Below, piece after piece: positions 5,148 to 49,741 of a stretch of DNA of 64,000 nucleotides. The position numbers were made by a program, and so were the translations under genes. Origin of the DNA: an uncultured Candidatus Saccharibacteria bacterium (GTDB lineage Bacteria; Patescibacteriota; Minisyncoccia; SW-4-49-11); NCBI GenBank assembly GCA_964646465.1, contig CAZYEN010000029.1, positions 2,670-66,669 of the forward strand. The letters run 5' to 3'. Positions within the stretch are counted from its first letter, which is position 1; each line of letters begins with the position of its first letter. The notes beneath the pieces were generated by a model. That model was not told the DNA's origin. It ran no database searches and saw nothing but the letters and a program-made list of their open reading frames with translations.

Positions 5148-5429
5148 TCACCCCTCCACTTTTTCAAATCTATTAACAATTTGTCCCTTTTCTAGTTGGA
5201 CGGGTGTATTCCAGCCATCCTCACCATTTACTTTTCTGACCCAGATTATTGAGTCGTCTAGACTTTGGTAAATTACTACAGGCTCTTCATCCCATTCTAA
5301 TAGGGCTAGATTGAGTACTTTGTAATGTTTTTGAGGACTTTTGTAATGATAATATTTAACTCCTATTTTTATATTATATTGCTCGAGATTTAATTTATCT
5401 AATAATTGAGTGGAGTCTGTATGTGCCAT
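5148..5429 (-). CDS. DUF1653-like small protein
   Basis: The pattern YYHYKSPQKHYKV...VVIYQSL...WVRKV...NRFEKV resembles the YrHYKG...VvYr...WvRP...RFe signature of DUF1653. Confidence 0.45.
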   Translation of the reverse strand: MAHTDSTQLLDKLNLEQYNIKIGVKYYHYKSPQKHYKVLNLALLEWDEEPVVIYQSLDDSIIWVRKVNGEDGWNTPVQLEKGQIVNRFEKVEG

Positions 5430-5480
5430 AGATTTTAAGTTTAGAATATACTTAATTATAGCATAATTATAGTCCCTCTA

Positions 5481-5511
5481 TATATAAATGCAAATGATTT
5501 GCATTTATATA
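5481..5511 (+). promoter_or_regulatory. Perfect 14-3-14 palindrome (tatataaatgcaaa-tga-tttgcatttatata), a candidate Zur/Fur-family operator
   Basis: The inverted repeat is seen directly in the sequence. It lies in the divergent intergenic region between the DUF1653 gene and the COG0523 GTPase gene, and COG0523 genes are classic Zur regulon members. Confidence 0.45.
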
Positions 5512-5527
5512 TATTCTTTGATATACT

Positions 5528-6631
5528 TTGAAAAGTAAATTAGATAATATTATGCAAGATAAGCAAACTAAACTTTTACCGGTGACGGTATTATCTGGAT
5601 TCTTAGGTAGTGGGAAAACCACTCTTCTTAATGCCATTCTCAAAAATAGGCAGGGTCTTAAGGTTGCTGTGATCGTGAATGATATGTCTGAAGTGAATAT
5701 TGATGCTGAATTGGTAGCTAATAATGAAGTCTCTCTAAGTCAGACTGAGGAAAAGTTAGTAGAGCTCAGCAATGGATGTATTTGTTGTACATTGCGGGAA
5801 GATTTATTGGTGGAGGTGAAAAAATTAGCTCAAGAAAATCGTTTTGATTATCTCGTGATTGAATCTACAGGAATATCTGAACCATTACCTATTGCTGAAA
5901 CTTTTACTTTTGATGATGAGTCTGGAGATATTTTGTCTAATTTCGCAAGATTAGATACTATGGTGACGGTGGTAGATACGGCTAATTTTATGAATTATCT
6001 TGCCTCAGAAGATCAGCTTAAAGATACTGATGAATCTCTTGGGGAAGAGGATACCCGAACCATTGTAGGACTCCTTACAGATCAAATTGAATTTGCTGAT
6101 GTGATTGTATTATCTAAAGTGGATTTGGTGGATAAGGGAACTGTGGGTACTATTCGAGGTATTGTAACCAAGCTTAACCCTGATGCCAGAATTATTGAAG
6201 CGGTGAAAGGCGATATTCCTCTTAATGAGATTCTCAATACCGGATTATTTGATTTTGATAAGGCTTCTCAAAATGTGGGGTGGCTCAAAGAGATGCGAGG
6301 AGAACATACTCCAGAAACTGAGGAATATGGCATTAGTAGTTTTGTCTATGAGTCCAAAAAGCCTTTTGATAGACAAAAGCTGATGGAATTATTGCAAAAT
6401 GGTACACTACAGGGCGTAGTCCGATCTAAAGGGTTTGCTTGGGATAATTCTGACCTTACGACAGCTTTATTATGGTCTCAAGCAGGGAATATTATCAATC
6501 TAGACCCGTATGGATATTGGAGTAAATCTAAGAGTGGGTATATTAAGGGGGAGCAAAAAATTGTCTTTATTGGAGCTAATATGGATAAAAAAGCTATTGC
6601 AGAAGCTTTAGATAAGTGTTTGGGGATATGA
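5528..6631 (+). CDS. COG0523 (CobW/YciC/ZigA-like) metallochaperone GTPase
   Basis: P-loop GFLGSGKTT, the CxCC metal motif GCICCTL, and a CobW C-terminal domain. Confidence 0.85.
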   Translation: MKSKLDNIMQDKQTKLLPVTVLSGFLGSGKTTLLNAILKNRQGLKVAVIVNDMSEVNIDAELVANNEVSLSQTEEKLVELSNGCICCTLREDLLVEVKKLAQENRFDYLVIESTGISEPLPIAETFTFDDESGDILSNFARLDTMVTVVDTANFMNYLASEDQLKDTDESLGEEDTRTIVGLLTDQIEFADVIVLSKVDLVDKGTVGTIRGIVTKLNPDARIIEAVKGDIPLNEILNTGLFDFDKASQNVGWLKEMRGEHTPETEEYGISSFVYESKKPFDRQKLMELLQNGTLQGVVRSKGFAWDNSDLTTALLWSQAGNIINLDPYGYWSKSKSGYIKGEQKIVFIGANMDKKAIAEALDKCLGI

Positions 6632-7461
6632 TTTTAGCATTTTTAGGTAAAGGTGGTAGTGGTAAGTCTTCTGTATCTGCTCAGATGTCCCTTTATCTTG
6701 CTTCTCAGAGGAAAAATGTATTGGCTATTGATGCTGATCATAATATGGATTTGTCATATAATCTGGAGGGAGAAGATATGATGTATTATGGAAATGCTTT
6801 AATGGATTTACAATTAGCAGTTGGTCTTGATAAAGAAGAAAAGTATTCAGCTGTATTTTTGCAGAATATAGTGAAACGATTTACTTTATCTCCATTATCT
6901 TCTGAAATTGAGAAGTATTCTATGAAGTTGGAGAATGGTATTCGATTGATGAGTGCTGGACCTCAAACTGATGATGTCCTGTATGGAAAAGCTTGTAGTC
7001 ATATTTTAACTACTCCATTAAAACTTCTTCTTCCTTTATTAGAGCTTCAAGAAAATGAGGTTGTGATAATTGATGAAAAAGCTGGAGCCGATGGAGTTTC
7101 TACAGGAATTATTACAGGGGTGGATATTGGAGTAATAGTTTGTGAACCAGCATTACATAGTATCAAAACTGCAAAGCAAATTGCAGAATTAATAAAATTT
7201 TATGAAACTCCTTATATGTTTGTAGGGAATAAAGTAACTTCAAGTGAAGACAAAAATTTTATTGAGGAAAGTTTGGGAGAGATTCCTATTGCTTACTTAA
7301 TGGAAAGTACGAATCTAAAAAGAAATCCCTCTCTCTTGGTTTCAGAGTGGAGTGATGAGCTGTCCATGATATTCGAACATGCACAAAAGATATCTCAGAA
7401 TAATCGTTTAGAAAGAACCATAAAGAAATTTCAACGAAATCAGAAATTTTCTCATAATTAG
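6628..7461 (+). CDS. CooC/MinD/ParA-family P-loop ATPase
   Basis: The deviant Walker A GKGGSGKSS is followed by AIDADHN. The start overlaps the upstream stop as ATGA (6628-6631), so the two genes are translationally coupled. Confidence 0.7.
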   Translation: MILAFLGKGGSGKSSVSAQMSLYLASQRKNVLAIDADHNMDLSYNLEGEDMMYYGNALMDLQLAVGLDKEEKYSAVFLQNIVKRFTLSPLSSEIEKYSMKLENGIRLMSAGPQTDDVLYGKACSHILTTPLKLLLPLLELQENEVVIIDEKAGADGVSTGIITGVDIGVIVCEPALHSIKTAKQIAELIKFYETPYMFVGNKVTSSEDKNFIEESLGEIPIAYLMESTNLKRNPSLLVSEWSDELSMIFEHAQKISQNNRLERTIKKFQRNQKFSHN

Positions 7462-7549: not shown

Positions 7550-8257
7550 ATGTGTAATGCACATTTCAATGAACATCTTGCTCCTCTTAATCGTCGGCAT
7601 TTGGAAGATGTTCAGACTTATTTTCCCTCTCAAGCTGAGTTTGCAGAAAAAGTCTTTCATGCGTTGATATCTAATTTGAATCCTCAGGTTAACCTTCTTG
7701 TTGCCTTTGTGGCTCTGAAGTATCAATATGATCTTGGTATGAGAGGTATTTTTGGAAGATTTGGCAGAGTGCTTTATGCTCCACTTTCTATCGTTGCAAA
7801 AACAGGCTCTCATGAATGGATTCGTTTCCGTCCCATCGTTGTGGAGGAACTTCACAAAAGTTTCCTTTCCCTTATGATGGCGAAAGAGAATCGTCTAGCT
7901 TTGGAGGGTGTGATGGGTGAGTATGGACTTACTCTATCGCAGAGACATTGCTGTGGCATTATCTTTGGAGAAAGTTCATCGGTATATCGCTTTGAGTCTT
8001 CAGATGAGTCAAAGTTGCGGAATGAAATGCGGAGTTATGCTGAATCAATGGGTATGCCTGTTAGAGTTGTAGAGTTTGATAATATCCCAAGTGAGAATAG
8101 TGATTTGGGAGTAGTTGAACGAGCATTTTATGATTTGTGCAGTGATGTGTTTGCTCGAATTGCATTGCAAGGATATGAATCTTATATTGATCCTCGGCAA
8201 GAATTGCTCTGGGATGAAATTGTTCTCTCAAAACCAGTTTTTATGAATACTTTGTGA
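7550..8257 (+). CDS. Hypothetical protein in a GC-elevated segment
   Basis: A 235-aa ORF. Sampled 60-nt lines here are about 38-40% GC, against roughly 28% in neighbouring genes. No motif was recognised. Confidence 0.4.
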   Translation: MCNAHFNEHLAPLNRRHLEDVQTYFPSQAEFAEKVFHALISNLNPQVNLLVAFVALKYQYDLGMRGIFGRFGRVLYAPLSIVAKTGSHEWIRFRPIVVEELHKSFLSLMMAKENRLALEGVMGEYGLTLSQRHCCGIIFGESSSVYRFESSDESKLRNEMRSYAESMGMPVRVVEFDNIPSENSDLGVVERAFYDLCSDVFARIALQGYESYIDPRQELLWDEIVLSKPVFMNTL

Positions 8258-20158: not shown

Positions 20159-20773
20159 CTACAATCCCAAAATTTCTTTGACTTTCATTATGGTGACTTT
20201 TTCTTGGCGGGTGAGTTCGTCTAGGGAGTTTTGGATGGATTTGAGATTGGTTTTCATCTCGGGGATGATGACATATTCTAGGGCATTGACTCGTCTTCTG
20301 GTGGCTTCTATTTCCTCAGCTAATAGCCTGGCGGTGAATTCTATCTCAGCTAATTTTACTAACAGGGGTAGTATATTTTGGATTGTTAAGAGGGATTGGT
20401 CTAAATCTTTGGGTGTGCCTAAAGTTCCATATTGGAAGGGGTCTCCTTGTAAATGAGGGATTATATGTGGGATGGTCACTCCCATAATAGATTTTTTTTG
20501 TAATTCTAGATAGGTCTTGGCTTGGGAGAGATGGATTAGTTCATTGATAGCTTCGGTTGAAATTTTGGTCTGAGCGAATTGAAATAATTGTATTGCTTCT
20601 ACAATTTTGGGAGTTAATTCTCCTCTTAGCTTGATTACTTCTTGGATAATGGCTAAAAACTCTTGTATTAGTCCATCTCTTTTGTCGGTGAGCAAACCAT
20701 GTCCACGAGAAGCGGTTTTAATCTTCTTTTTGAGCTTGAGGGCTTCTTGTCTGGTCGGTTTGACGGCAGGCAT
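20159..20773 (-). CDS. atpD: V/A-type ATP synthase subunit D
   Basis: The N-terminus has a subunit D-like profile, the protein is 204 aa, and it occupies the last position of the operon. Confidence 0.85.
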   Translation of the reverse strand: MPAVKPTRQEALKLKKKIKTASRGHGLLTDKRDGLIQEFLAIIQEVIKLRGELTPKIVEAIQLFQFAQTKISTEAINELIHLSQAKTYLELQKKSIMGVTIPHIIPHLQGDPFQYGTLGTPKDLDQSLLTIQNILPLLVKLAEIEFTARLLAEEIEATRRRVNALEYVIIPEMKTNLKSIQNSLDELTRQEKVTIMKVKEILGL

Positions 20774-20775
20774 AT

Positions 20776-22161
20776 TTATTTGGAATACTTATCTATAAAT
20801 TCGGGCTTGATTTTCTTTAGTTCTTTTCTCGGTAATATTGATAATAATTCCCAAGACAAATCTAAGGTGTCTAGAATGGTTCGGTTTTCTCGTCTTCCTT
20901 GCCTTATATATCTACTCTCAAATGCTTCAGCGAATTTGATATAGGCTTTATCTGTCTCTGATAGGGCTGATTCTCCTAGGATTAAGGCTAATTCCTTGAT
21001 TTCCATACCTTTGGCATAGGAGGAGGCCATTTGCTCTTTGACGGCGGATAAATCTTCTCGGCTGTATTTTTTATCTACGCCAATTCGGGATAATGATCCA
21101 ATTGGTTGGATTGGAGGGTATATTCCTTGATTATGTAGCTCTCTATTGACCATAATTTGGCCTTCTGTGATGTATCCGGTTAAATCTGGTATTGGATGCT
21201 GCTTATCATCATCTGGCATTGTAAGGATAGGGATTTGGGTGAGTGACCCTGTGGATCCTTTGACTATTCCTGCTCTTTCATACAGGGTTGCAAGGTCGGT
21301 ATATAGATATCCTGGATATCCTCGTCTTCCTGGAATTTCTTTTCTAGAGGCTGAGACTTCTCGGAGGGCATCAGCATAATTGGTCATATCTGTTAGGATG
21401 ACTAATACATGCATATTCTTCTCAAAGGCTAAGTATTCTCCTAGAGTGAGAGCTAATCTTGGTAGGGTAATTCGCTCTACAATTGGGTCGCTAGCGGTGT
21501 TGATAAACAAAGCTGCTCTCTCCATCGCTCCGGTTTTTTCAAATGAGTCTATGAAGAATTGAGCTTCTTCAAAGGTGACTCCCATAGCTGCAAAGATTAC
21601 TACGAAAGGTTCTTCGGCTTTGACTAAATCTGTTCCATTTTGTAGGGCTACAACTTGGGCTTGTTCAGCAATTTGGGTGGCTATTTCAGAATGTGGTAGT
21701 CCTGACCCTGAGAAAATAGGTAGTTTTTGTCCTCTTACTAGGGCATTTAGTCCGTCTATGGTGGAGATTCCAGTTTGAATAAATTCACTAGGGAATTGTC
21801 GCATTCCTGGATTGATAGGGGAGCCATTGATGTCTAGATATTTCTCAGCGATTATTTCTGGTCCGCCGTCTTTGACTTTACCAGCTCCTGTGAATACTCG
21901 TCCTAACATACTGTCTGAGACTCCAAATTTGAGAGTTTCTCCTAAGAAGGCTATCTCGGCATTCTTTACATCTAATCCGTCGGTACTAGTGAATAACTGT
22001 ACTACAGCGGTGTCTTTGCTGGCTTCTAGTACTCGTCCTTGTCGGATTTGTCCTTTTGAGTCTCTAATTTCCACCATTTCCTCGAAGGCAACTTGTGGGA
22101 CTTTCTCAACTACGACTAGGGGTCCGGCAATTTCTTTGATTGTGTTATACCATTTCTTCAT
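20776..22161 (-). CDS. atpB: V/A-type ATP synthase subunit B
   Basis: A 461-aa non-catalytic B subunit, highly conserved throughout. Confidence 0.9.
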
Positions 22162-22170
22162 ATAATTATC

Positions 22171-24003
22171 CTAAATTCCACTTATTACTTTATTGATACC
22201 AAAGTCCTCGGATTTATCATTATCTTTGAGATTTTGAATTGTGCTTGAGATATTTTCTATTAGAGACACTATATTCTCAATGTCTGATTCTGGAGTATTT
22301 TTGAGTCTAGCAATTTCTTCACGAATTGGTAGGTCTAGGATATCATTTATCTCAATTTGAGGATTATTTTTGGCGGTTTCAGTGGCTTCATTATGGAAGG
22401 TCATCATTGCTTTTAGCATCAAATACATTTTACGAGTTGAGGCAAAGGCATCAATTTCATCAAAGGCATTTTGTTGTAGATAATCTTCTCGAAGTCCTCG
22501 AGCTGTATCTAGGAGTATTTTCTCAGAGGTAGATAGGGCGTCCATTCCTACTAATTTTATAATATCGTCTAGCTCATTTTCTTTCTGTAAAATTTGCATT
22601 GCTAAATCTCTTAGGTCTTTCCAATCTGAATCAGTTGCATTGATGAAATATTCTTCTACATTATCTTTGTATAGGCTATAACTATTGAGCCAATGAATAG
22701 ATGGAAAATGTTTTTTGGCGGCTAGAGATGCATCTAATCCCCAAAAAGCTTTGGTCACTTTAAGAGTGGCTTGGCTAACTGGTTCAGATAAGTCTCCACC
22801 TGGAGGTGATACGGCTGCAATGATAGTGGCTGACCCAATTCTTTCTTCTGTTCCTAATGTGCTGACTATTCCGGCTCTTTCATAAAAGGCTGAAATTCTA
22901 GATCCAAGATAGGCAGGATATCCTTCTTCTCCTGGCATTTCTTCTAGTCTTCCTGACATTTCTCGCATAGCTTCTGCCCAACGAGAGGTTGAATCGGCCA
23001 TCATAGCTACATTGTATCCCATATCTCGATAGTATTCAGCTAAGGTAATACCTGTATAAACTGAGGCTTCACGAGCTGCGATTGGCATATTGGAGGTATT
23101 GGCAACTAAAATCGTTCTTTCCATCAAAGGTCGTCCAGATTTTGGATCTTTAAGGTGTGGAAATTCTACCAATACATCGGTAATTTCATTTCCTCTCTCT
23201 CCACAACCTACATAAACTACAATATCTGCATCTGACCATTTTGCTAATTGATGTTGAATAACTGTTTTTCCAGCTCCGAATGGTCCTGGTACGGCGGCTG
23301 CTCCTCCTTTTGGAATTGGGAAGAATGTATCTATAATTCTTTGTTGAGTTATTAGTGGAGTAGTTGGCACTTGTTTTGCTTTGTATGGTCTTGGGGTTCT
23401 AACTGGCCATTTGTGCATTAATTGGACTGGGTTTTCTCCAATTGTAGCTATTGTCTCGGTAATTGTGAATTCTCCTGCCTTGATATCCTTAACTTCTCCC
23501 TCTACTCCAAATGGAACTAAAATCTTATGAGTAATTAACTCGGTCTCTTGTACTGTACCTAATATGTCTCCAGTGGTTACAGAGTCTCCTTTTTTGACTA
23601 ATGGCTTAAATTCCCATTTCATCTCTCTGTCTAGGCTAGGAGCGGTTAAACCTCTTGCAATATATTCAGCATTCAATCCTTGGGCAGCTGCTTTCTCAGC
23701 AATTACATTTAGAGGTCGTAAAATTCCATCAAATAATCCAGAGGTCAAAAGTCCTGGGCCTAATTCAATACTAAGGGGCTCTCCAGTTGAGACAACAGGC
23801 TCTCCTACGATTAGACCAGAGGTGTCCTCATAGACTTGAATGGAGGCTGTATCACCTTTTAATTCAATGATTTCCCCCATTAATTCTAGATTTCCAACTT
23901 TCACTAAATCATACATTTTAGCTCCTTTCATGGAGTCTGCGATAACTAGTGGTCCTGAGATTTTGATGATAATTCCGGTATTCATAGTAATTAGTTTAAT
24001 CAA
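22171..24003 (-). CDS. atpA: V/A-type ATP synthase catalytic subunit A
   Basis: Walker [10 protein letters not shown], 610 aa with the A-subunit-specific non-homologous insert, and the ERGNE region. Confidence 0.92.
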
Positions 24004-24323
24004 GAGTTGAATAATTTGTCTAGGCTCATACCTACGGCTTTCTCGGTCAGCTGCTTTAGCTCCTCAACAGAGTTGCTATCTGAGCTAATAGGTAGCTGTG
24101 ATATAGGTATATTGAGGGAATTGAGAACTTTTCTTTGCTTGGTAGATAATATAATGTTGGATGCTATAAAGATAATTGCGTACATCTCTGCATCTTTCTG
24201 GATATTAGCTATTATCTGATCTATTTCCAAGTCATCACTATTCAAAGTTTCAAAACCAAATAGTTTAAATAGTAGTGTTATTTCAGTATCAGCGATTAGA
24301 GCTGGCTTTTTATAGTCTATCAT
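24000..24323 (-). CDS. atpF: V/A-type ATP synthase subunit F
   Basis: A 107-aa ORF with the N-terminal LIADTEI..LF.L.G profile, in the F position of the operon. Confidence 0.7.
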
Positions 24324-25258
24324 ATATTGGAATAATCTATAAATCTTAATTGAGCCTGTTTAGAATCAATTTGTTTGGAGTGGTGTAGAATCAATAATTT
24401 AAAGTTAGTAATTGTATATTGGAGCCTCTCGGTATATTGTATAATTCTATCCCCAGACATCCCTGTAAATTGAGCTTTACTTAAGGCTTTGATCTCATTT
24501 TTAATAAGGGTGTTTTCAATGTTTATTGTGTTAATATCTACCGGAGCTAGATTTAGATATTGGCCTATATCTCCTAACACATCTCCAAAACCAAAGCTTT
24601 TTACAGCATTTATAGCCAGACTTCCCTGAATAGGTAATAAATGTCTTAATATATGTTCTTTTGACTGTCCTTTTTGAGTTCTTGTTAAAACATTGAGTAG
24701 GGTATAGCTATCTATTTTAGCTAATATAAAATCCTTCATTATATCACTACTTCTGTTTAGGTTTTCAAATAGTAGAGTTAAAAATATTTCTTCTAAATAA
24801 GAGATTAGGCTAAAGCTATCTTGTGAGTGAATAAGTTTTTCCTCTTTGGCTAATAATTTAGACTTGAACTGTGCAGAATAATATAGTTTATCAGAGACTT
24901 CAGTTAGAATTTGTTCAAACCCTTTCTCTCCAAGTGTCTCCCCATAAATAGTTTTATTAATAGATAGTGTTTTGAGTTTTTCAAAGTCTTGAGACATCTT
25001 GAGATAAATAAAGGGGGCAGAGTTCTCTGGCAAAAGGGATAGGATTTCTGTTATTTGTTGGTGATAATACTGATTGAGTTTATTTATTAAATTTTCTAAA
25101 TTGAGTTCGGCTAGACCAAAGGACTCTCGAATTGTATTTAGAATTACTTCGATACTATCAGTTACTAAAAGTGCTTTAGTCGTATTAGACTCAGGTAAAT
25201 AACTTAGTCTAGTTACGTATCTACTAGTTACACCAATTAGAGGGACTTGTAAACTCAT
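24320..25258 (-). CDS. atpC: V/A-type ATP synthase subunit C (d)
   Basis: A 312-aa helical protein in the operon position between E and F. Confidence 0.7.
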   Translation of the reverse strand: MSLQVPLIGVTSRYVTRLSYLPESNTTKALLVTDSIEVILNTIRESFGLAELNLENLINKLNQYYHQQITEILSLLPENSAPFIYLKMSQDFEKLKTLSINKTIYGETLGEKGFEQILTEVSDKLYYSAQFKSKLLAKEEKLIHSQDSFSLISYLEEIFLTLLFENLNRSSDIMKDFILAKIDSYTLLNVLTRTQKGQSKEHILRHLLPIQGSLAINAVKSFGFGDVLGDIGQYLNLAPVDINTINIENTLIKNEIKALSKAQFTGMSGDRIIQYTERLQYTITNFKLLILHHSKQIDSKQAQLRFIDYSNI

Positions 25259-25791
25259 ATTTCCTTCATTATGGCAGGTAGTGTTTTTTGTTTTACTTTA
25301 TCAAGAATATCCTCTACAGTAATTTCTAAATTCACCTCATCTAATTTAGCAGTGATGGCTCCTAAGTTAGAGCCTTGTTCTAGGTTATTTTTTTTATACC
25401 CTAGACTTTGAGTAATGCTTGCTAATTCTTTAGAGTAGTTGCCACTTATATTTAAAGTTGTAGAATTGGGGATATCTTTTAATATCTTTTGGATTGAGTC
25501 TTTTACAAAGTTTGAGTTTATAATCTCTGGTATTATATCCTTATAAATAGAGTTAAGTTGAGTTTGGATTGAATAACCGTAGTTAAACTTTTGAGTTTTA
25601 CTTTGTTGAAATTTATGGAAATTAATTTGAGTTGCCACTGCCTCGTCAATTTTCTCGGCATGTATTTTTTTAGTCTCAGATACGACTCTGTCCCAAGTGT
25701 TTTTAGTCTCTTTTAACTCTGCTTGATACTGAGCCTCTAACTTCTTAACATCTTTATTTATCTGAGATTGTATTGAATCTGCTAAAGTCAT
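25255..25791 (-). CDS. atpE: V/A-type ATP synthase subunit E (peripheral stalk)
   Basis: A 178-aa ORF with an N-terminal coiled coil and a globular C-terminus, correctly placed in the operon. Confidence 0.7.
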   Translation of the reverse strand: MTLADSIQSQINKDVKKLEAQYQAELKETKNTWDRVVSETKKIHAEKIDEAVATQINFHKFQQSKTQKFNYGYSIQTQLNSIYKDIIPEIINSNFVKDSIQKILKDIPNSTTLNISGNYSKELASITQSLGYKKNNLEQGSNLGAITAKLDEVNLEITVEDILDKVKQKTLPAIMKEI

Positions 25792-25792
25792 A

Positions 25793-26308
25793 TTATCCTA
25801 CTGATACTCCGTTAATAATCAAAATAGAAACTAGAAGTCCGAACACAGCGAAAGTCTCTACCAAGGCTGCTAGAATAATAACTTGTCCAATTTTAGATTT
25901 ATCTCTAGAAATTAACTGTACACCACTGGCGATTACATCTCCTTGATATTTACCTGAAGCTAAACAAGTAAGTCCGACTGGAATTCCTGCAAAAGCCAAA
26001 ATCATACCGTTCTGCCAACTTAAATTTGCAAATTCACCAGATAAAACTCCTGTGTTTTGTAAAATCAGCACAGCTGCCAAAAGTCCATAGATGGCCTGGG
26101 ATCCTGGAAGAGCAGACAACAAAAGCACATTCCCAAATTGAGAATCATCTTCCGCTACCAATCCTGCTCCGGTTTTTCCTGCTGTAGATACTCCAATAGA
26201 TGAACCAGCACCAGCCAATCCTGCTGCAAGGGCTGCTCCTAATACTGCTAAACTTACTCCTAATATTTCCATATTTTCAACTTTAACTCTTATATAAGGG
26301 ACACTCAT
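25793..26308 (-). CDS. atpK: V/A-type ATP synthase proteolipid subunit K (c)
   Basis: A Gly/Ala-rich four-helix proteolipid of 171 aa. Confidence 0.85.
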   Translation of the reverse strand: MSVPYIRVKVENMEILGVSLAVLGAALAAGLAGAGSSIGVSTAGKTGAGLVAEDDSQFGNVLLLSALPGSQAIYGLLAAVLILQNTGVLSGEFANLSWQNGMILAFAGIPVGLTCLASGKYQGDVIASGVQLISRDKSKIGQVIILAALVETFAVFGLLVSILIINGVSVG

Positions 26309-26376
26309 TGTTTACTGGTATCCTTTTCACTATACTCCTAATTTAACCTATGAATACAGTGAAAGAGATCACAGTA

Positions 26377-28413
26377 TTATTCAATAACACTGTACTCTTG
26401 GGATCTTGTTACTACTTGCAGTGGTCTTCCTCCAGATTGGAAGAATTTGCTGAAAAACTCTACAAAGTGTAGCCTACCAACATTGATGTAAGTACCTAAT
26501 ACATTAAGAGCTATATTAAATACATTTCCAGCTACGAATATAATTGTCATAATTATATATCCAATTATTACCCAAGCTCCACCTTTTTCTACAAACCCAC
26601 TTCCTGCTAAGTTTGCTAAAGTACCAACTACTCCTGCAATAATTCCAGTAGCAAGGCCTAGAGCTACCAACCTAGTATAGGATAGTATGTCAGATAGATA
26701 TCCTACCACTCCAAAAAAGACATCGTAAGCTCCTTTTCCAAATTTAGCAAAAATGGATTTCATTTCTCTTCCCAAAAGATATATCATCACAAATATATAG
26801 GCTATATATACATATAGTAGGGGATCAATTAATAATTTTAGGCCATCTCCTAACAACTCCATATTAATTAAAATTAGGAATATTCCGAATATTAGAGCTC
26901 CGGCCCATAGAATTGAATCTAGACTGGCATCTAAAAAAGATTTAGAGTTATAAGCTTGAACTATATTGAGCACCAAACCAAATAGTAAATGTACTATTCC
27001 AAGAACGATTGTGAATCCCATTAAAGCGATAACACTATCCATTGGGTTAAGAATCTGCATCTTTTGTAAGAGAGGAATCAAACCAATGTTGATTAGAAAT
27101 TTCATATGTGGTGAGGCTGTAGCAGGATCTACAACATCTGGTGTAATCCCAAACCAACTACCAAATAAAGCTCCAATAATCAATGTAGAGATAGATGCAA
27201 TAAATACAACTGCAAAAATATCTCTAATACCTGATTTTAATCTAGGATTAATTAATCCAAGTCCTGTCAAAATAATCAAAATAAGAGCATACCCTGCCTC
27301 AGATAAAGCCAAACCGAACATAAAGGTGAAGAAAATTGCAATAGACAGGGTAGGGTCAATTTTACCGGCTTGTGGATACCCCATGATTTTTGTGACTGTC
27401 TCAAAATGTCTAATTATTGGAAGGTTCTTCAGTATCACTGGACTTGATTCAAAGTTTGCTGGTAACTCAACTACCTTGCCACTATCAGTGATTTTAGATA
27501 CTGATTGTCTGACAGAATCAAATTGTTCTTCATCTACCCATAATTGTATTGATGAGTTTTCTTCGGATTCTGGATTAAATGAATGTAAATAAGAAATTAA
27601 ATTCAGGTGTGAGTTTAGCACGTCAACTAATATAGCTAAATCCTTGAATTTGACGGGCGATTTTTTAAGTTCTCGTCTTAATTTAGTTAATAACTTATTA
27701 TTTGAGTTAAGCTCTTGTTTACTATTGTGATAAATGTCATAGAAAGATCCACTGACTTCGGCTGGGAATTGTATTAATGTTGCTTGATTCTGTATTATGT
27801 CAATGGCAATTTTAACTTGATTCTTCGGTAGTGCTAAAATATATACGTAATCAGTTCCAAGTTTTTTTACGGATTCCAGTACCATAGGAGATACCGCATG
27901 CTCTAATTGTTCTGCTATATAATGTGCTCTAGACTCGTCTATCAAAAATGGTAAAAAGCTAATGTATGAGTATGATTTAAAGATATTTATTTCAATATCT
28001 TTTAATGGTTCAGATTTAGCAATAATGTCCTGTAGAACCTCCTGACGTATTAGTAGGTCATCTTTTAGCTCTGCCTTCTCTACAATCTCCTTAGCCTTTA
28101 TAATAATATTATCTTTTTCTTTATCATAATGTTCAAACACATCTTCAGTTATACTAAATCTATCATCTAGTACGGCAGAAAGCATTGACTTTTTTTCTAA
28201 ATGGTATTCTTTATATACATCTAGAGCTTTATTGACTATATCTAAGTTTTCTAAAATATCTTCTTGTATAGCATGATGTTTCTTAGAAAGTGGTGTTCTT
28301 TCTACTTTTTCTATTATTTCACCAACTTGTTGTTTTTGAAAATATGATAACAGTTCGAGTTGATGTTTGTTAGGAACTGTAACTTGGATTAGTTTAGATG
28401 CTTTAACTCCCAT
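26377..28413 (-). CDS. atpI: V/A-type ATP synthase subunit I (a)
   Basis: A 678-aa ORF with a soluble N-terminal half and a C-terminal half of 7-8 TM helices, placed second in the operon. Confidence 0.85.
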   Translation of the reverse strand: MGVKASKLIQVTVPNKHQLELLSYFQKQQVGEIIEKVERTPLSKKHHAIQEDILENLDIVNKALDVYKEYHLEKKSMLSAVLDDRFSITEDVFEHYDKEKDNIIIKAKEIVEKAELKDDLLIRQEVLQDIIAKSEPLKDIEINIFKSYSYISFLPFLIDESRAHYIAEQLEHAVSPMVLESVKKLGTDYVYILALPKNQVKIAIDIIQNQATLIQFPAEVSGSFYDIYHNSKQELNSNNKLLTKLRRELKKSPVKFKDLAILVDVLNSHLNLISYLHSFNPESEENSSIQLWVDEEQFDSVRQSVSKITDSGKVVELPANFESSPVILKNLPIIRHFETVTKIMGYPQAGKIDPTLSIAIFFTFMFGLALSEAGYALILIILTGLGLINPRLKSGIRDIFAVVFIASISTLIIGALFGSWFGITPDVVDPATASPHMKFLINIGLIPLLQKMQILNPMDSVIALMGFTIVLGIVHLLFGLVLNIVQAYNSKSFLDASLDSILWAGALIFGIFLILINMELLGDGLKLLIDPLLYVYIAYIFVMIYLLGREMKSIFAKFGKGAYDVFFGVVGYLSDILSYTRLVALGLATGIIAGVVGTLANLAGSGFVEKGGAWVIIGYIIMTIIFVAGNVFNIALNVLGTYINVGRLHFVEFFSKFFQSGGRPLQVVTRSQEYSVIE

Positions 28414-47295: not shown

Positions 47296-47458
47296 ATATT
47301 TTTAAAATTAGGCTATTATCATAATTGCATATATTATAGCTTATATTTAGTATTTTGTATATATTTAAAGTATTTTTATTTAAAAAGATGAGAAATATCG
47401 TAGACAAAAATTTAAAAACATGGTATATTATACTATATTAATATAATATAGTATAAAT

Positions 47459-47814: not shown

Positions 47815-48876
47815 ATGAACATCATAGAATTTAAGGCTGAGTTTCAGTCCGTATTAGCCCAAGCTATTAAATCAAAATTTACAGAATATAGTCAGTATAC
47901 TGATGATCAGGAGATTTTAGAGATAATTAATTATGCTAAATCTATTATAGGTGGAGGAAAATGTATTCGACCTTATATGGCATATATCTTGTATGAAACC
48001 TTGGGATGTGATAACAAAGAGGTTGTTATGGATTTATTAGTATCTTTAGAAATCTTCCATTCCTTTGCATTGATACATGATGATGTAATTGATGAAGGCA
48101 AAATGCGTCATAAGGTAGAAACTTTACACACTTTTGTATCAAAAAGGATACAATATAATCATAGGACTTTTGCACACAGAATCCATTATGGCCATTCTCA
48201 GGCTATCTTGGTAGGTGATTTATTATTCTCGTGGTCCATTAGTAGATTTCATCAATTTAGTCACTTACCTTATTATAATGAAGCTTGTAAAATTTTTCAT
48301 ACAATGATAGATGAGGTGGCTATAGGACAGATGATAGATGTTAATGTTATGACTAGAGATGCAATTAGTTCTCAATTGATAGAAACTAAAATGCGACTCA
48401 AAACAGCAGGATATACTTTTGTAAGGCCAATGCAGATAGGCGTTGCACTGGCAGGTAAGGAAAAAGAACTAACCCAGTTTTGTGTGGACTTTGGGATAGC
48501 TTTGGGCTTGGCCTTTCAAACTCAAGATGATATTTTGGATGTTATTGCTGATCCGAAAATAATTAAGAAATCAGTTCTATCAGATATAAGAGAGCATCAA
48601 CATACTTTTTTAACACAATATGTGCTTGAAAATGGTAAAAACTCAGACATTGTAGAATTAGAAAAATATTGGGGAAAATCTGAATTAAATGACAGTGATC
48701 AGTTCCATATTGTTAAACTTTTCGAAAAAACTGGAGCATTATCTTATGCTAGATCTAAAGTCGCAGAATATCTAGATCAAGCTAAACAGATTACCTTAAA
48801 GGAAAAAAATATTACTGATAAAACTAAACTGGTATTAAATCAATTAATAAAGTATATCGAAGATAGAGGTTATTAA
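47815..48876 (+). CDS. Polyprenyl diphosphate synthase (trans-isoprenyl transferase)
   Basis: FARM LIHDDVIDEGKMR and SARM FQTQDDILDV. Confidence 0.85.
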   Translation: MNIIEFKAEFQSVLAQAIKSKFTEYSQYTDDQEILEIINYAKSIIGGGKCIRPYMAYILYETLGCDNKEVVMDLLVSLEIFHSFALIHDDVIDEGKMRHKVETLHTFVSKRIQYNHRTFAHRIHYGHSQAILVGDLLFSWSISRFHQFSHLPYYNEACKIFHTMIDEVAIGQMIDVNVMTRDAISSQLIETKMRLKTAGYTFVRPMQIGVALAGKEKELTQFCVDFGIALGLAFQTQDDILDVIADPKIIKKSVLSDIREHQHTFLTQYVLENGKNSDIVELEKYWGKSELNDSDQFHIVKLFEKTGALSYARSKVAEYLDQAKQITLKEKNITDKTKLVLNQLIKYIEDRGY

Positions 48877-48880
48877 GAAT

Positions 48881-49741
48881 ATGGATAAATATACTCAATC
48901 AGTAGAATCTATCACCAAGCAATTTGGAACAAGCTATTATTTTGCAACCAGATTTTTACCCATTGATTTGAGAGAGGCGACCTATGCTTTATATAGTTTT
49001 TTTCGTATTCCAGATGAGATTGTGGATAATTCCATTCACGAAAAAGAAGATTATATCTTAGCGGAACTAGAAGATTGGGAAGAAATGTGGTATAAAGCGT
49101 ATAAGGGGGAAACAACAATATATCCAATTTTAAACTTAACGAATCAAGTTTTTAAGCAATATAATATACCTTATCAGTATAGTCTAGATTTTCTAAAAGC
49201 TATGAAACAGGATGTTTATACTACAAGATATGATACATATAAGGATTTGAAAAATTATATGCATGGTTCCGCCTCAGTTGTTGGTTTAATGATGAGTTAT
49301 GTCATAGGGTTTAACAATGAAAGAGCTTTATATTATGCTTCATACTTAGGTGAAGCTATGCAACTTACTAACTTCATTAGGGATATAGGAGAAGATTATA
49401 AAGAAAGAGGTCGAATTTATTTACCTCAAGAAGATATGAATAAGTATAGTGTAAAAGAAATAGATATTAAAGATAATAAAGTTACTGATAATTTTATTGA
49501 ATTAATAAAATTTGAAATTAAGAGAGCAAGAAGTTTATATAGAAAATCTGATAAAGGTATTAAATATCTCAATAAAAGAGGTAGATTTGCTGTTATAATG
49601 GCAAGTCGTATGTATGAAGCTATTTTAGATAAAGTAGAGCAAAATAATTATAATGTTTTAACTAGAAGAGCAAGAACTTCTAAAAGAGAAAAAATATATA
49701 TATTGGGTAAATCAGCTTTAGAATATGGATTTCAAGGCTGA
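48881..49741 (+). CDS. Squalene/phytoene synthase family protein (CrtB/CrtM/HpnD-like)
   Basis: Asp-rich motifs YSFFRIPDEIVD and NFIRDIGEDYKERGRIYLP. Confidence 0.8.
   Translation: MDKYTQSVESITKQFGTSYYFATRFLPIDLREATYALYSFFRIPDEIVDNSIHEKEDYILAELEDWEEMWYKAYKGETTIYPILNLTNQVFKQYNIPYQYSLDFLKAMKQDVYTTRYDTYKDLKNYMHGSASVVGLMMSYVIGFNNERALYYASYLGEAMQLTNFIRDIGEDYKERGRIYLPQEDMNKYSVKEIDIKDNKVTDNFIELIKFEIKRARSLYRKSDKGIKYLNKRGRFAVIMASRMYEAILDKVEQNNYNVLTRRARTSKREKIYILGKSALEYGFQG

Follow-up and report, generated by a model that had tools for sequence, protein, structure and literature searches.

A probable Zur-type operator within a long palindrome upstream of a COG0523 gene in a Paceibacteria lineage

Introduction

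The locus described here raises the question of whether a perfect palindrome, situated between two divergent genes, is the binding site of a metal-responsive regulator and, if so, which part of it is read and which metal is sensed. The window (the whole stretch of DNA that was analysed, 64 kb in length) has a G+C content of ~32%, and identical or near-identical contigs are present in several JGI, Logan and ENA metagenomes. The original prediction was that the palindrome represents a Zur/Fur-family box for the adjacent COG0523 gene. A subgroup of COG0523 proteins (YciC/ZagA, ZigA, YeiR) is described as encoded downstream of predicted Zur sites in many bacterial genomes (Haas et al., 2009, PMC2770081).

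The palindrome and its genomic setting

At positions 5481-5511 the sequence tatataaatgcaaa-tga-tttgcatttatata forms the perfect 14-3-14 inverted repeat that was first reported, but it is in fact the inner part of a longer palindrome. The arms of the longer element, 5479-5495 and 5497-5513, are 17 nt each and 100% complementary, and they are centered on a single base, G5496. This is the longest perfect palindrome of the window. Shuffling the window 200 times (first-order Markov) produced arms of at most 13 nt; the 17-1-17 palindrome is thus beyond chance. Its outer extension, positions 12-17 from the center, consists partly of (TA)n, which is self-complementary by nature. The features of the locus are as follows.

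5148..5429, minus strand: DUF1653 gene, divergent, with an ATG at 5429 (Pfam)
5455..5463, minus strand: extended -10 element TGCTATAAT of the predicted DUF1653 promoter (ATTATAGCA kept in four strains, by eye)
5479..5513, no strand: perfect 17-1-17 palindrome TATATATAAATGCAAAT-G-ATTTGCATTTATATATA, 35 nt, exceeding all 200 shuffles
5485..5507, no strand: putative Zur-type (Fur-family) operator TAAATGCAAATGATTTGCATTTA, from matrices of 120 genome sites and 92 Paceibacteria sites
5498..5504, plus strand: -35-like hexamer TTTGCA/TTGCAT of the predicted COG0523 promoter, inside the right half-site (consensus scan)
5519..5527, plus strand: extended -10 element TGATATACT of the predicted COG0523 promoter (consensus scan; GATATACT invariant in four strains)
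5552..6631, plus strand: COG0523 G3E GTPase gene with cobW and CobW_C domains (Pfam; best NCBIfam match ZigA)
6616..7461, plus strand: gene for a CooC-like ATPase of MinD/ParA fold with a conserved C-x-H (Pfam, structural relative and homologue comparison)

The palindrome lies in a spacer of 122 nt between the DUF1653 gene (minus strand) and the COG0523 gene (plus strand). Pfam confirms the identity of both flanking genes, and with it the proposed intergenic position shared with DUF1653. The distance originally given to the CobW-like gene, 17 nt, was counted to a TTG at 5528 and needs revision. ATG 5552 is the likelier start, since gene calls on identical public contigs give a COG0523 protein of 359 amino acids, the homologues begin ~8 residues before LPVTVLSG and a conserved -10 element overlaps TTG 5528. 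The box therefore ends ~40 nt before the start codon. The COG0523 protein scores 527 bits against the ZigA model NF038288 (aligned 1-318 of 390), by far the best-scoring model, yet below the curated equivalog cut-off of 600 bits. By these matches the gene is a COG0523 of the zinc-linked kind and not a certified ZigA equivalog. It is the gene predicted to be controlled by the box, and the CooC-like gene is probably co-transcribed with it.

On the plus strand, a consensus scan detects TTTGCA-18-TATACT preceded by TG, the -10 part of which is conserved. These consensus matches predict a COG0523 transcription start near 5534, which would place the 23-bp box at about -49 to -27, over the -35 hexamer. 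The DUF1653 side is less clear. A second candidate promoter found there by the scan, TTTGCA-17-TATAAT, is not conserved in L003. Relative to the predicted DUF1653 promoter listed above, the box spans about -37 to -59 with its center at about -48, and control of DUF1653 is therefore possible but not evident; whether the box also controls this gene is uncertain. DUF1653 is found beside the box only in the window lineage and in L191, where the protein is 68% identical to that of the window, as against 96% for COG0523, and DUF1653 was consequently rejected as a recurrent regulon member. The protein has no solved relative, and the literature search returned nothing relevant to it.

Three other identities of the palindrome were considered and rejected. 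A repeat or mobile-element hairpin does not fit an element that is single-copy in the window and is without direct repeats. A terminator does not fit either, as no terminator-like site was detected and the element is between two gene starts. A known RNA element was rejected because an Rfam 15 scan of 5300-5700 gave two matches at chance level only (E 0.7-0.8).

Elsewhere in the window, a NUDIX gene (minus strand) and a polyprenyl synthetase gene (plus strand) enclose the second-longest perfect palindrome (47428-47456, 13-3-13, TTATACTATATTA-ATA-TAATATAGTATAA), which has no sequence relation to the Zur box. Behind the polyprenyl synthetase gene comes one for a squalene/phytoene synthase (47815-49741 for the two, plus strand). 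On the minus strand, 20159-28413 contains V/A-type ATPase genes, among them ATP-synt_D and an ATP-synt_C proteolipid in duplicate. The segment 16000-20000, of 26-30% GC, carries a gene for a MazF/PemK toxin, a T5orf172-domain gene and a small gene with a weak HTH, and has the appearance of a small islet of mobile or defence type.

The operator core and its consensus

The center of the palindrome is a 7-1-7 core, TGCAAAT-G-ATTTGCA, at 5489-5503. A matrix of the 120 genome sites listed from the scan described below gives the operator consensus T-W-A-W-TGCAAAT-S-ATTTGCA-W-T-W-A, with which the window site agrees at every informative position (±1 to ±11). Outside ±11 the information content of the matrix is at background, and the operator is therefore 21-23 bp in length. 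By this comparison the functional unit would be these ~21-23 bp and not the whole palindrome, and the outer arms (positions 12-17) would lie outside the general operator. The segment 5485-5507 has the 7-1-7 repeat, the conserved G and T bases in each half-site and the AT-rich flanks of a Zur-type operator, and its sequence TAAATGCAAATGATTTGCATTTA is the consensus of a widespread Fur-family operator.

The 7-1-7 scheme for Fur, PerR and Zur sites is reportedly that of Baichoo and Helmann. The Zur box of Bacillus subtilis, where repression is by promoter occlusion, is TCGTAAT-n-ATTACGA. The window box shares with it the 7-1-7 arrangement and the central AAT-n-ATT and differs at half-site positions 2, 3 and 4. 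The likeness to Firmicute Zur boxes that was first noted thus extends to shape and center and not to the half-site, which is TGCAAAT in place of the quoted Bacillus-type TCGTAAT, a difference at three of seven positions from the consensus as quoted there. On half-site sequence the window box belongs to another, equally widespread class. The actinobacterial Zur box, TGAAAAT-n-ATTTTCA, differs from the window box by one base per half-site and is from a different phylum. In Streptomyces the Nur box is TTGCAA-N5-TTGCAA, and Nur senses nickel; the L003 variant of the window box, TTGCAAATGATTTGCAA, fits this formula literally. No nickel-related gene is found beside the Paceibacteria boxes described below.

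Two characterized sites carry the same core. In Clostridium thermocellum, DAP-seq of Fur_1691 identified TGCAAATcATTTGCA, a pseudo-palindrome in front of a zinc ABC transporter; other Clostridia have similar sites before zinc transporters, and the authors interpret Fur_1691 as Zur (PMC8457756). The 7-1-7 core of TGCAAATcATTTGCA is identical to that of the window, although the phylum is different and the target there is a zinc ABC transporter rather than COG0523 (PMC8457756). In Magnetospirillum gryphiswaldense, crystal structures of Fur with the feoAB1 operator (4RB1/4RB3) display one dimer on TTAATTGCAAATCATTTGCAATTGC, with Arg57 bonded to the conserved G, Tyr56 packed on T bases and Lys15 entering the narrow AT-rich minor groove (PMC4506495). 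The crystallised TTAATTGCAAATCATTTGCAATTGC contains the same 17-bp TTGCAAAT-C-ATTTGCAA as the window box (PMC4506495). The Magnetospirillum protein differs in that it senses iron or manganese and controls iron uptake, and the crystal DNA was engineered towards symmetry by three base changes (PMC4506495). By analogy, this Fur-DNA structure is the best structural model for the reading of the box.

The same box in other phyla

The 19-mer AWTGCAAATGATTTGCAWT was scanned for exact matches in one genome per GTDB species, and at least 120 genomes were found to carry it. At uniform base composition, chance alone is estimated to give ~17 matches over the full collection, with a higher number in AT-rich DNA. 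The matches listed come from Clostridia, Alphaproteobacteria, Verrucomicrobia, Gammaproteobacteria, Acholeplasmataceae, five Patescibacteria and others; several of these are embedded in GC-rich DNA, and several continue into additional GCAAAT hexamers. Extension by repeated hexamers is a trait of classical Fur boxes.

Genes next to the listed sites were identified by taking, on each side, the first open reading frame that reads away from the site, and scanning the resulting 149 open reading frames against Pfam. The neighbors of the 120 listed sites include the following.

ZnuA: 36
FUR: 29
cobW: 7
ABC_tran: 6 (ZnuC-like ABC ATPases)
Zip: 5
Nramp: 3

At least one of these families flanks the site in 79 of the 120 listed loci. 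The motif thus recurs by zinc-uptake genes and by the gene of the regulator itself, both in these 79 loci and at the Paceibacteria sites. Further copies had been predicted in front of zinc-uptake genes; they are present in other genomes, with ZnuA, Zip and FUR as neighbors, and the window itself has no second copy at up to three mismatches, with only chance-level sites at four. About half of the ZnuA-family neighbors in this broad genome set are without the His-rich loop. The Nramp (MntH-type) neighbors are in L133 (Methylobacterium) and L202 (Mesorhizobium), both alphaproteobacterial, and also in L213; outside the window lineage, the occurrence of the 19-mer before Nramp genes in three loci indicates that the same operator serves genes of another metal, of manganese/iron type.

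The box in Paceibacteria relatives

Closer to the window lineage, the Parcubacteria group bacterium ZE-Oct18-75 (L191) encodes a COG0523 protein that is 95.7% identical to that of the window and has the box in the same place. More distant COG0523 homologues are labelled Candidatus Pacebacteria or Paceibacteria. Pacebacteria orthologues of 62-65% identity have box variants before a ZIP-COG0523 gene pair or before COG0523, with a Fur-family gene in the cluster. In L252-L254, the CooC-like, hypothetical and FUR genes read in one direction and ZIP and COG0523 in the other, with AATGCAAGT-N-ATTTGC(A/G)TT ~50 nt before ZIP. In L251, a perfect TTTGCAAAA-T-TTTTGCAAA is found 46 nt before COG0523. In L268, where COG0523 is 57% identical to that of the window, two boxes are present within ~60 nt upstream of a row consisting of COG0523, the CooC-like gene, a hypothetical gene and zur; the CooC-like gene and zur are at matching positions in L267, L276, L280, L314, L315 and L317. 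Window open reading frame 7550-8257 was considered as a homologue of the gene that intervenes between the CooC-like gene and zur in L268, and was rejected for want of any similarity. Three COG0523 orthologues of 69-73% identity (L008-L010) have other genes around them and lack a box in their available DNA.

The Fur-family protein of the Pacebacteria clusters is ~119 amino acids long; its recognition helix contains an invariant Y-R, and it carries the motifs HHHAxCxxC...GxCxH. The residues equivalent to this Y-R contact T and G in the Magnetospirillum Fur crystal (PMC4506495). A metagenome scan with this family yielded 80 loci, totalling 422 kb, in which WTGCAAATNATTTGCAW occurs at 92 sites at up to two mismatches, as against 1.2 in composition-preserving shuffles. 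The box is thus enriched ~75-fold around Paceibacteria Fur-family genes, and 54 of the 80 loci have a site. Its neighbors are the FUR gene itself, ZIP (23), ZnuA (14), CooC-like ATPases (6) and COG0523 (2): it is found between zur and ZIP or a His-rich ZnuA, and also before COG0523. All 14 ZnuA proteins encoded beside these boxes have a His-rich stretch, with 6-8 His per 25 residues, and no iron or manganese uptake gene was seen beside a Paceibacteria box. In other Patescibacteria, zur is found beside the box in L179, L206, L207, L252-254, L268 and others.

Conservation in diverged strains

Four variants of the intergenic region were aligned: that of the window (identical in L001 and L002), that of L003-L006, that of L007 and that of L191. 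Only three blocks are invariant in the four strains, namely ATTATAGCA, which is TGCTATAAT read on the minus strand, the 15-bp core TGCAAATGATTTGCA and GATATACT. The core is unchanged while the flanks drift, and the arms outside the core are strain-specific. In L003 (9929-9961) positions 8, 10 and 13 are changed on both arms, and the palindrome is still perfect, at 16-1-16; the palindrome of L007 is an imperfect intermediate; and in L191 the symmetry is limited to the core and positions 9-10.

Across 120 + 91 related sites, pairing beyond ±11 equals that of a permuted-partner control, and runs as long as 7-8 positions occur in only two of the 120 genome sites listed. Extended palindromy was therefore rejected as a general property of the box, and the 35-nt perfection is peculiar to the window lineage, since the related sites do not pair beyond ±11. 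The symmetry of the (TA)n at positions 12-17 is trivial; that of the substitutions that separate the window from L003 is not. These substitutions may result from templated correction of quasi-palindromes during replication, or they may reflect a preference of the Zur of this lineage for symmetric AT-rich flanks through shape readout; an extended contact or a second Zur dimer on the long arms is a lesser possibility. As a separate observation, L254 (8420-8470) has a degenerate box, AATGCAAATAAGTTGTATT, where its CooC-like gene starts, and the two sides of this box form a perfect inverted repeat of 18 nt, CACAATGTACATACTAAT ... ATTAGTATGTACATTGTG, such that the flanks are perfect and the core is not.

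A model for the function of the box

The reading of the palindrome as a Zur/Fur-family box for the COG0523 gene is supported by the match and shape of the core, by the gene association across phyla and in Paceibacteria and by conservation in the lineage. The palindrome is real, and very probably functions as a Zur operator of a well-known kind. In particular, there is good reason to regard the central 21-23 bp (5485-5507) as the operator of the zinc-sensing Fur-family repressor Zur, a reading that we hold with high confidence on comparative grounds. When zinc is sufficient, one Zn-loaded Zur dimer would bind the 7-1-7 core, with each recognition helix reading the G of TGC and the neighboring T bases and with the AT-rich flanks read by shape. 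The bound protein would cover the -35 region of the promoter of the COG0523/CooC-like ATPase operon and block RNA polymerase. When zinc is scarce, Zur would leave the DNA and the metallochaperone genes would be expressed. Both the zinc response of the operon and repression through occlusion of the -35 region are predictions of this model, as are the promoter positions. A box over the -35 hexamer is the usual geometry for repression by occlusion.

The choice of zinc comes from the target genes and not from the box, because the same core serves iron/manganese regulators in alphaproteobacteria. It is conceivable, if improbable, that the regulator of this Fur-family operator is of Fur or Mur type and senses iron or manganese. 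The feoAB1 operator bound by Magnetospirillum Fur has the identical core; the core adjoins Nramp genes in three listed loci, two of them known to be alphaproteobacterial; and the missing His-rich loop in about half of the ZnuA-family neighbors of the broad set would also be compatible with another metal. In addition, sequence models do not assign the Patescibacteria Fur-family proteins to Zur: the best scores are to Fur and PerR, all of them far below the cut-off. Against this, the target in the window is a COG0523 that scores best with the model of the zinc chaperone ZigA, and not an iron or manganese transporter of the feoAB, mntH or sitABCD kind; Nramp accounts for only three of the 120 listed loci. 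The box neighbors in Paceibacteria, furthermore, are ZIP, ZnuA proteins that all have the His-rich loop, and COG0523, with no iron or manganese uptake gene seen. Zinc thus remains the preferred signal.

Where the zur gene itself is located was also addressed. The statement that the window has no zur or fur gene was confirmed by tblastn with Fur, Zur and PerR probes, by Pfam scans of the small open reading frames and by a search of all stop-to-stop open reading frames with a profile of the Paceibacteria Fur family, none of which detected a Fur-family gene in the 64 kb. No zur was found in the 4.5 kb beyond the end of the window, in the L001-L010 contigs with generic and lineage-specific probes, or, as any Fur-family gene, in ~10 kb further upstream in the relatives L003 and L004. 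Of the 80 Fur-family loci none is from the samples of the lineage (Ga0335062, Ga0335009, Ga0209288), no match in a homologue search with the Pacebacteria Fur-family protein could be traced to the contigs of the window lineage, and P0200 is from samples other than those of the lineage.

These results bear on a second explanation, that the lineage lost or relocated zur and that the box is a relic that regulates nothing now. Relatives of the L268 type do encode zur three genes downstream of the box, where the window has unrelated genes, and the 64 kb are without zur. We nevertheless consider a relic very improbable. Four strain variants share an unchanged 15-bp core in spite of the divergence of the intergenic DNA around it, which argues that a regulator is present, and the site is a perfect consensus match, whereas a dead site in an AT-rich spacer is expected to decay. 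We infer that the genome carries a zur gene outside the window.

The chance is slimmer still that the palindrome acts as a nucleic-acid structure, either a hairpin in a 5′ leader RNA or a DNA cruciform or hairpin: as RNA, 5470-5560 would indeed fold with a 16-bp stem (-20 kcal/mol, z = -3.7) and the symmetric changes between the window and L003 do preserve pairing, but both transcripts are predicted to start outside the palindrome, which would therefore not be transcribed, and this argues against an RNA hairpin, no Rfam family matches, L007 and L191 break the outer pairing and keep the core, related sites lack palindromy past ±11, and the association with Fur-family and zinc genes explains the conservation of the core without any structure.

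The CooC-like ATPase and significance of the locus

The best solved full-length relative of the CooC-like ATPase is the nickel chaperone CooC1 (3kje). The C-x-C of CooC aligns with a C-x-H (KACSH / KCAHGH) that is invariant in ten Patescibacteria homologues. In many Paceibacteria, homologous genes adjoin a Zur-type box or are next to COG0523 in loci that encode zur; strains L003 and L007 lack the gene. Homologues are located as follows.

L191: 552-1406
L207: 551-1243
L251: 10139-10984
L252: 8253-9044
L256: 605-1396
L268: 2180-3022

The protein is a candidate for an undescribed zinc metallochaperone. A broader proposal, and a tentative one that we consider doubtful at present, is that the box marks a zinc-starvation module specific to Patescibacteria, consisting of COG0523 and a second, undescribed metallochaperone, the CooC-like protein, in which C-x-H stands in place of the nickel-binding C-x-C. 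The window resembles the COG0523 subgroup of Haas et al. in that the gene is directly downstream of a predicted Zur site, and differs in the pairing with a CooC-like ATPase; the abstract and four sections of that paper make no mention of Patescibacteria (PMC2770081).

The operator is of a known sequence class, newly recognized in a Parcubacteria/Paceibacteria genome, and leaves the current picture as it is; of the whole locus, only the co-regulated CooC-like ATPase might alter that picture. The operator class TGCAAAT-n-ATTTGCA is nonetheless common to Fur-family regulators from Clostridia to Patescibacteria, and the locus adds a clean, consensus-perfect Zur operator to a bacterium of the candidate phyla radiation. 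To our knowledge, very few regulatory sites have been described in these bacteria. The site also provides a usable motif for reconstruction of the zinc regulon (zur, ZIP, znuA, COG0523 and the CooC-like ATPase) in Paceibacteria MAGs. The presence of such a regulon suggests that reduced, probably host-dependent cells retain a dedicated response to zinc starvation.

A minor observation concerns the L268 locus, in which a serine-recombinase-like gene (1-903; Recombinase and Zn_ribbon_recom domains) is directly upstream of the operon that runs from the box to zur. This neighbor hints that the module of box, COG0523, CooC-like gene and zur may be mobile.
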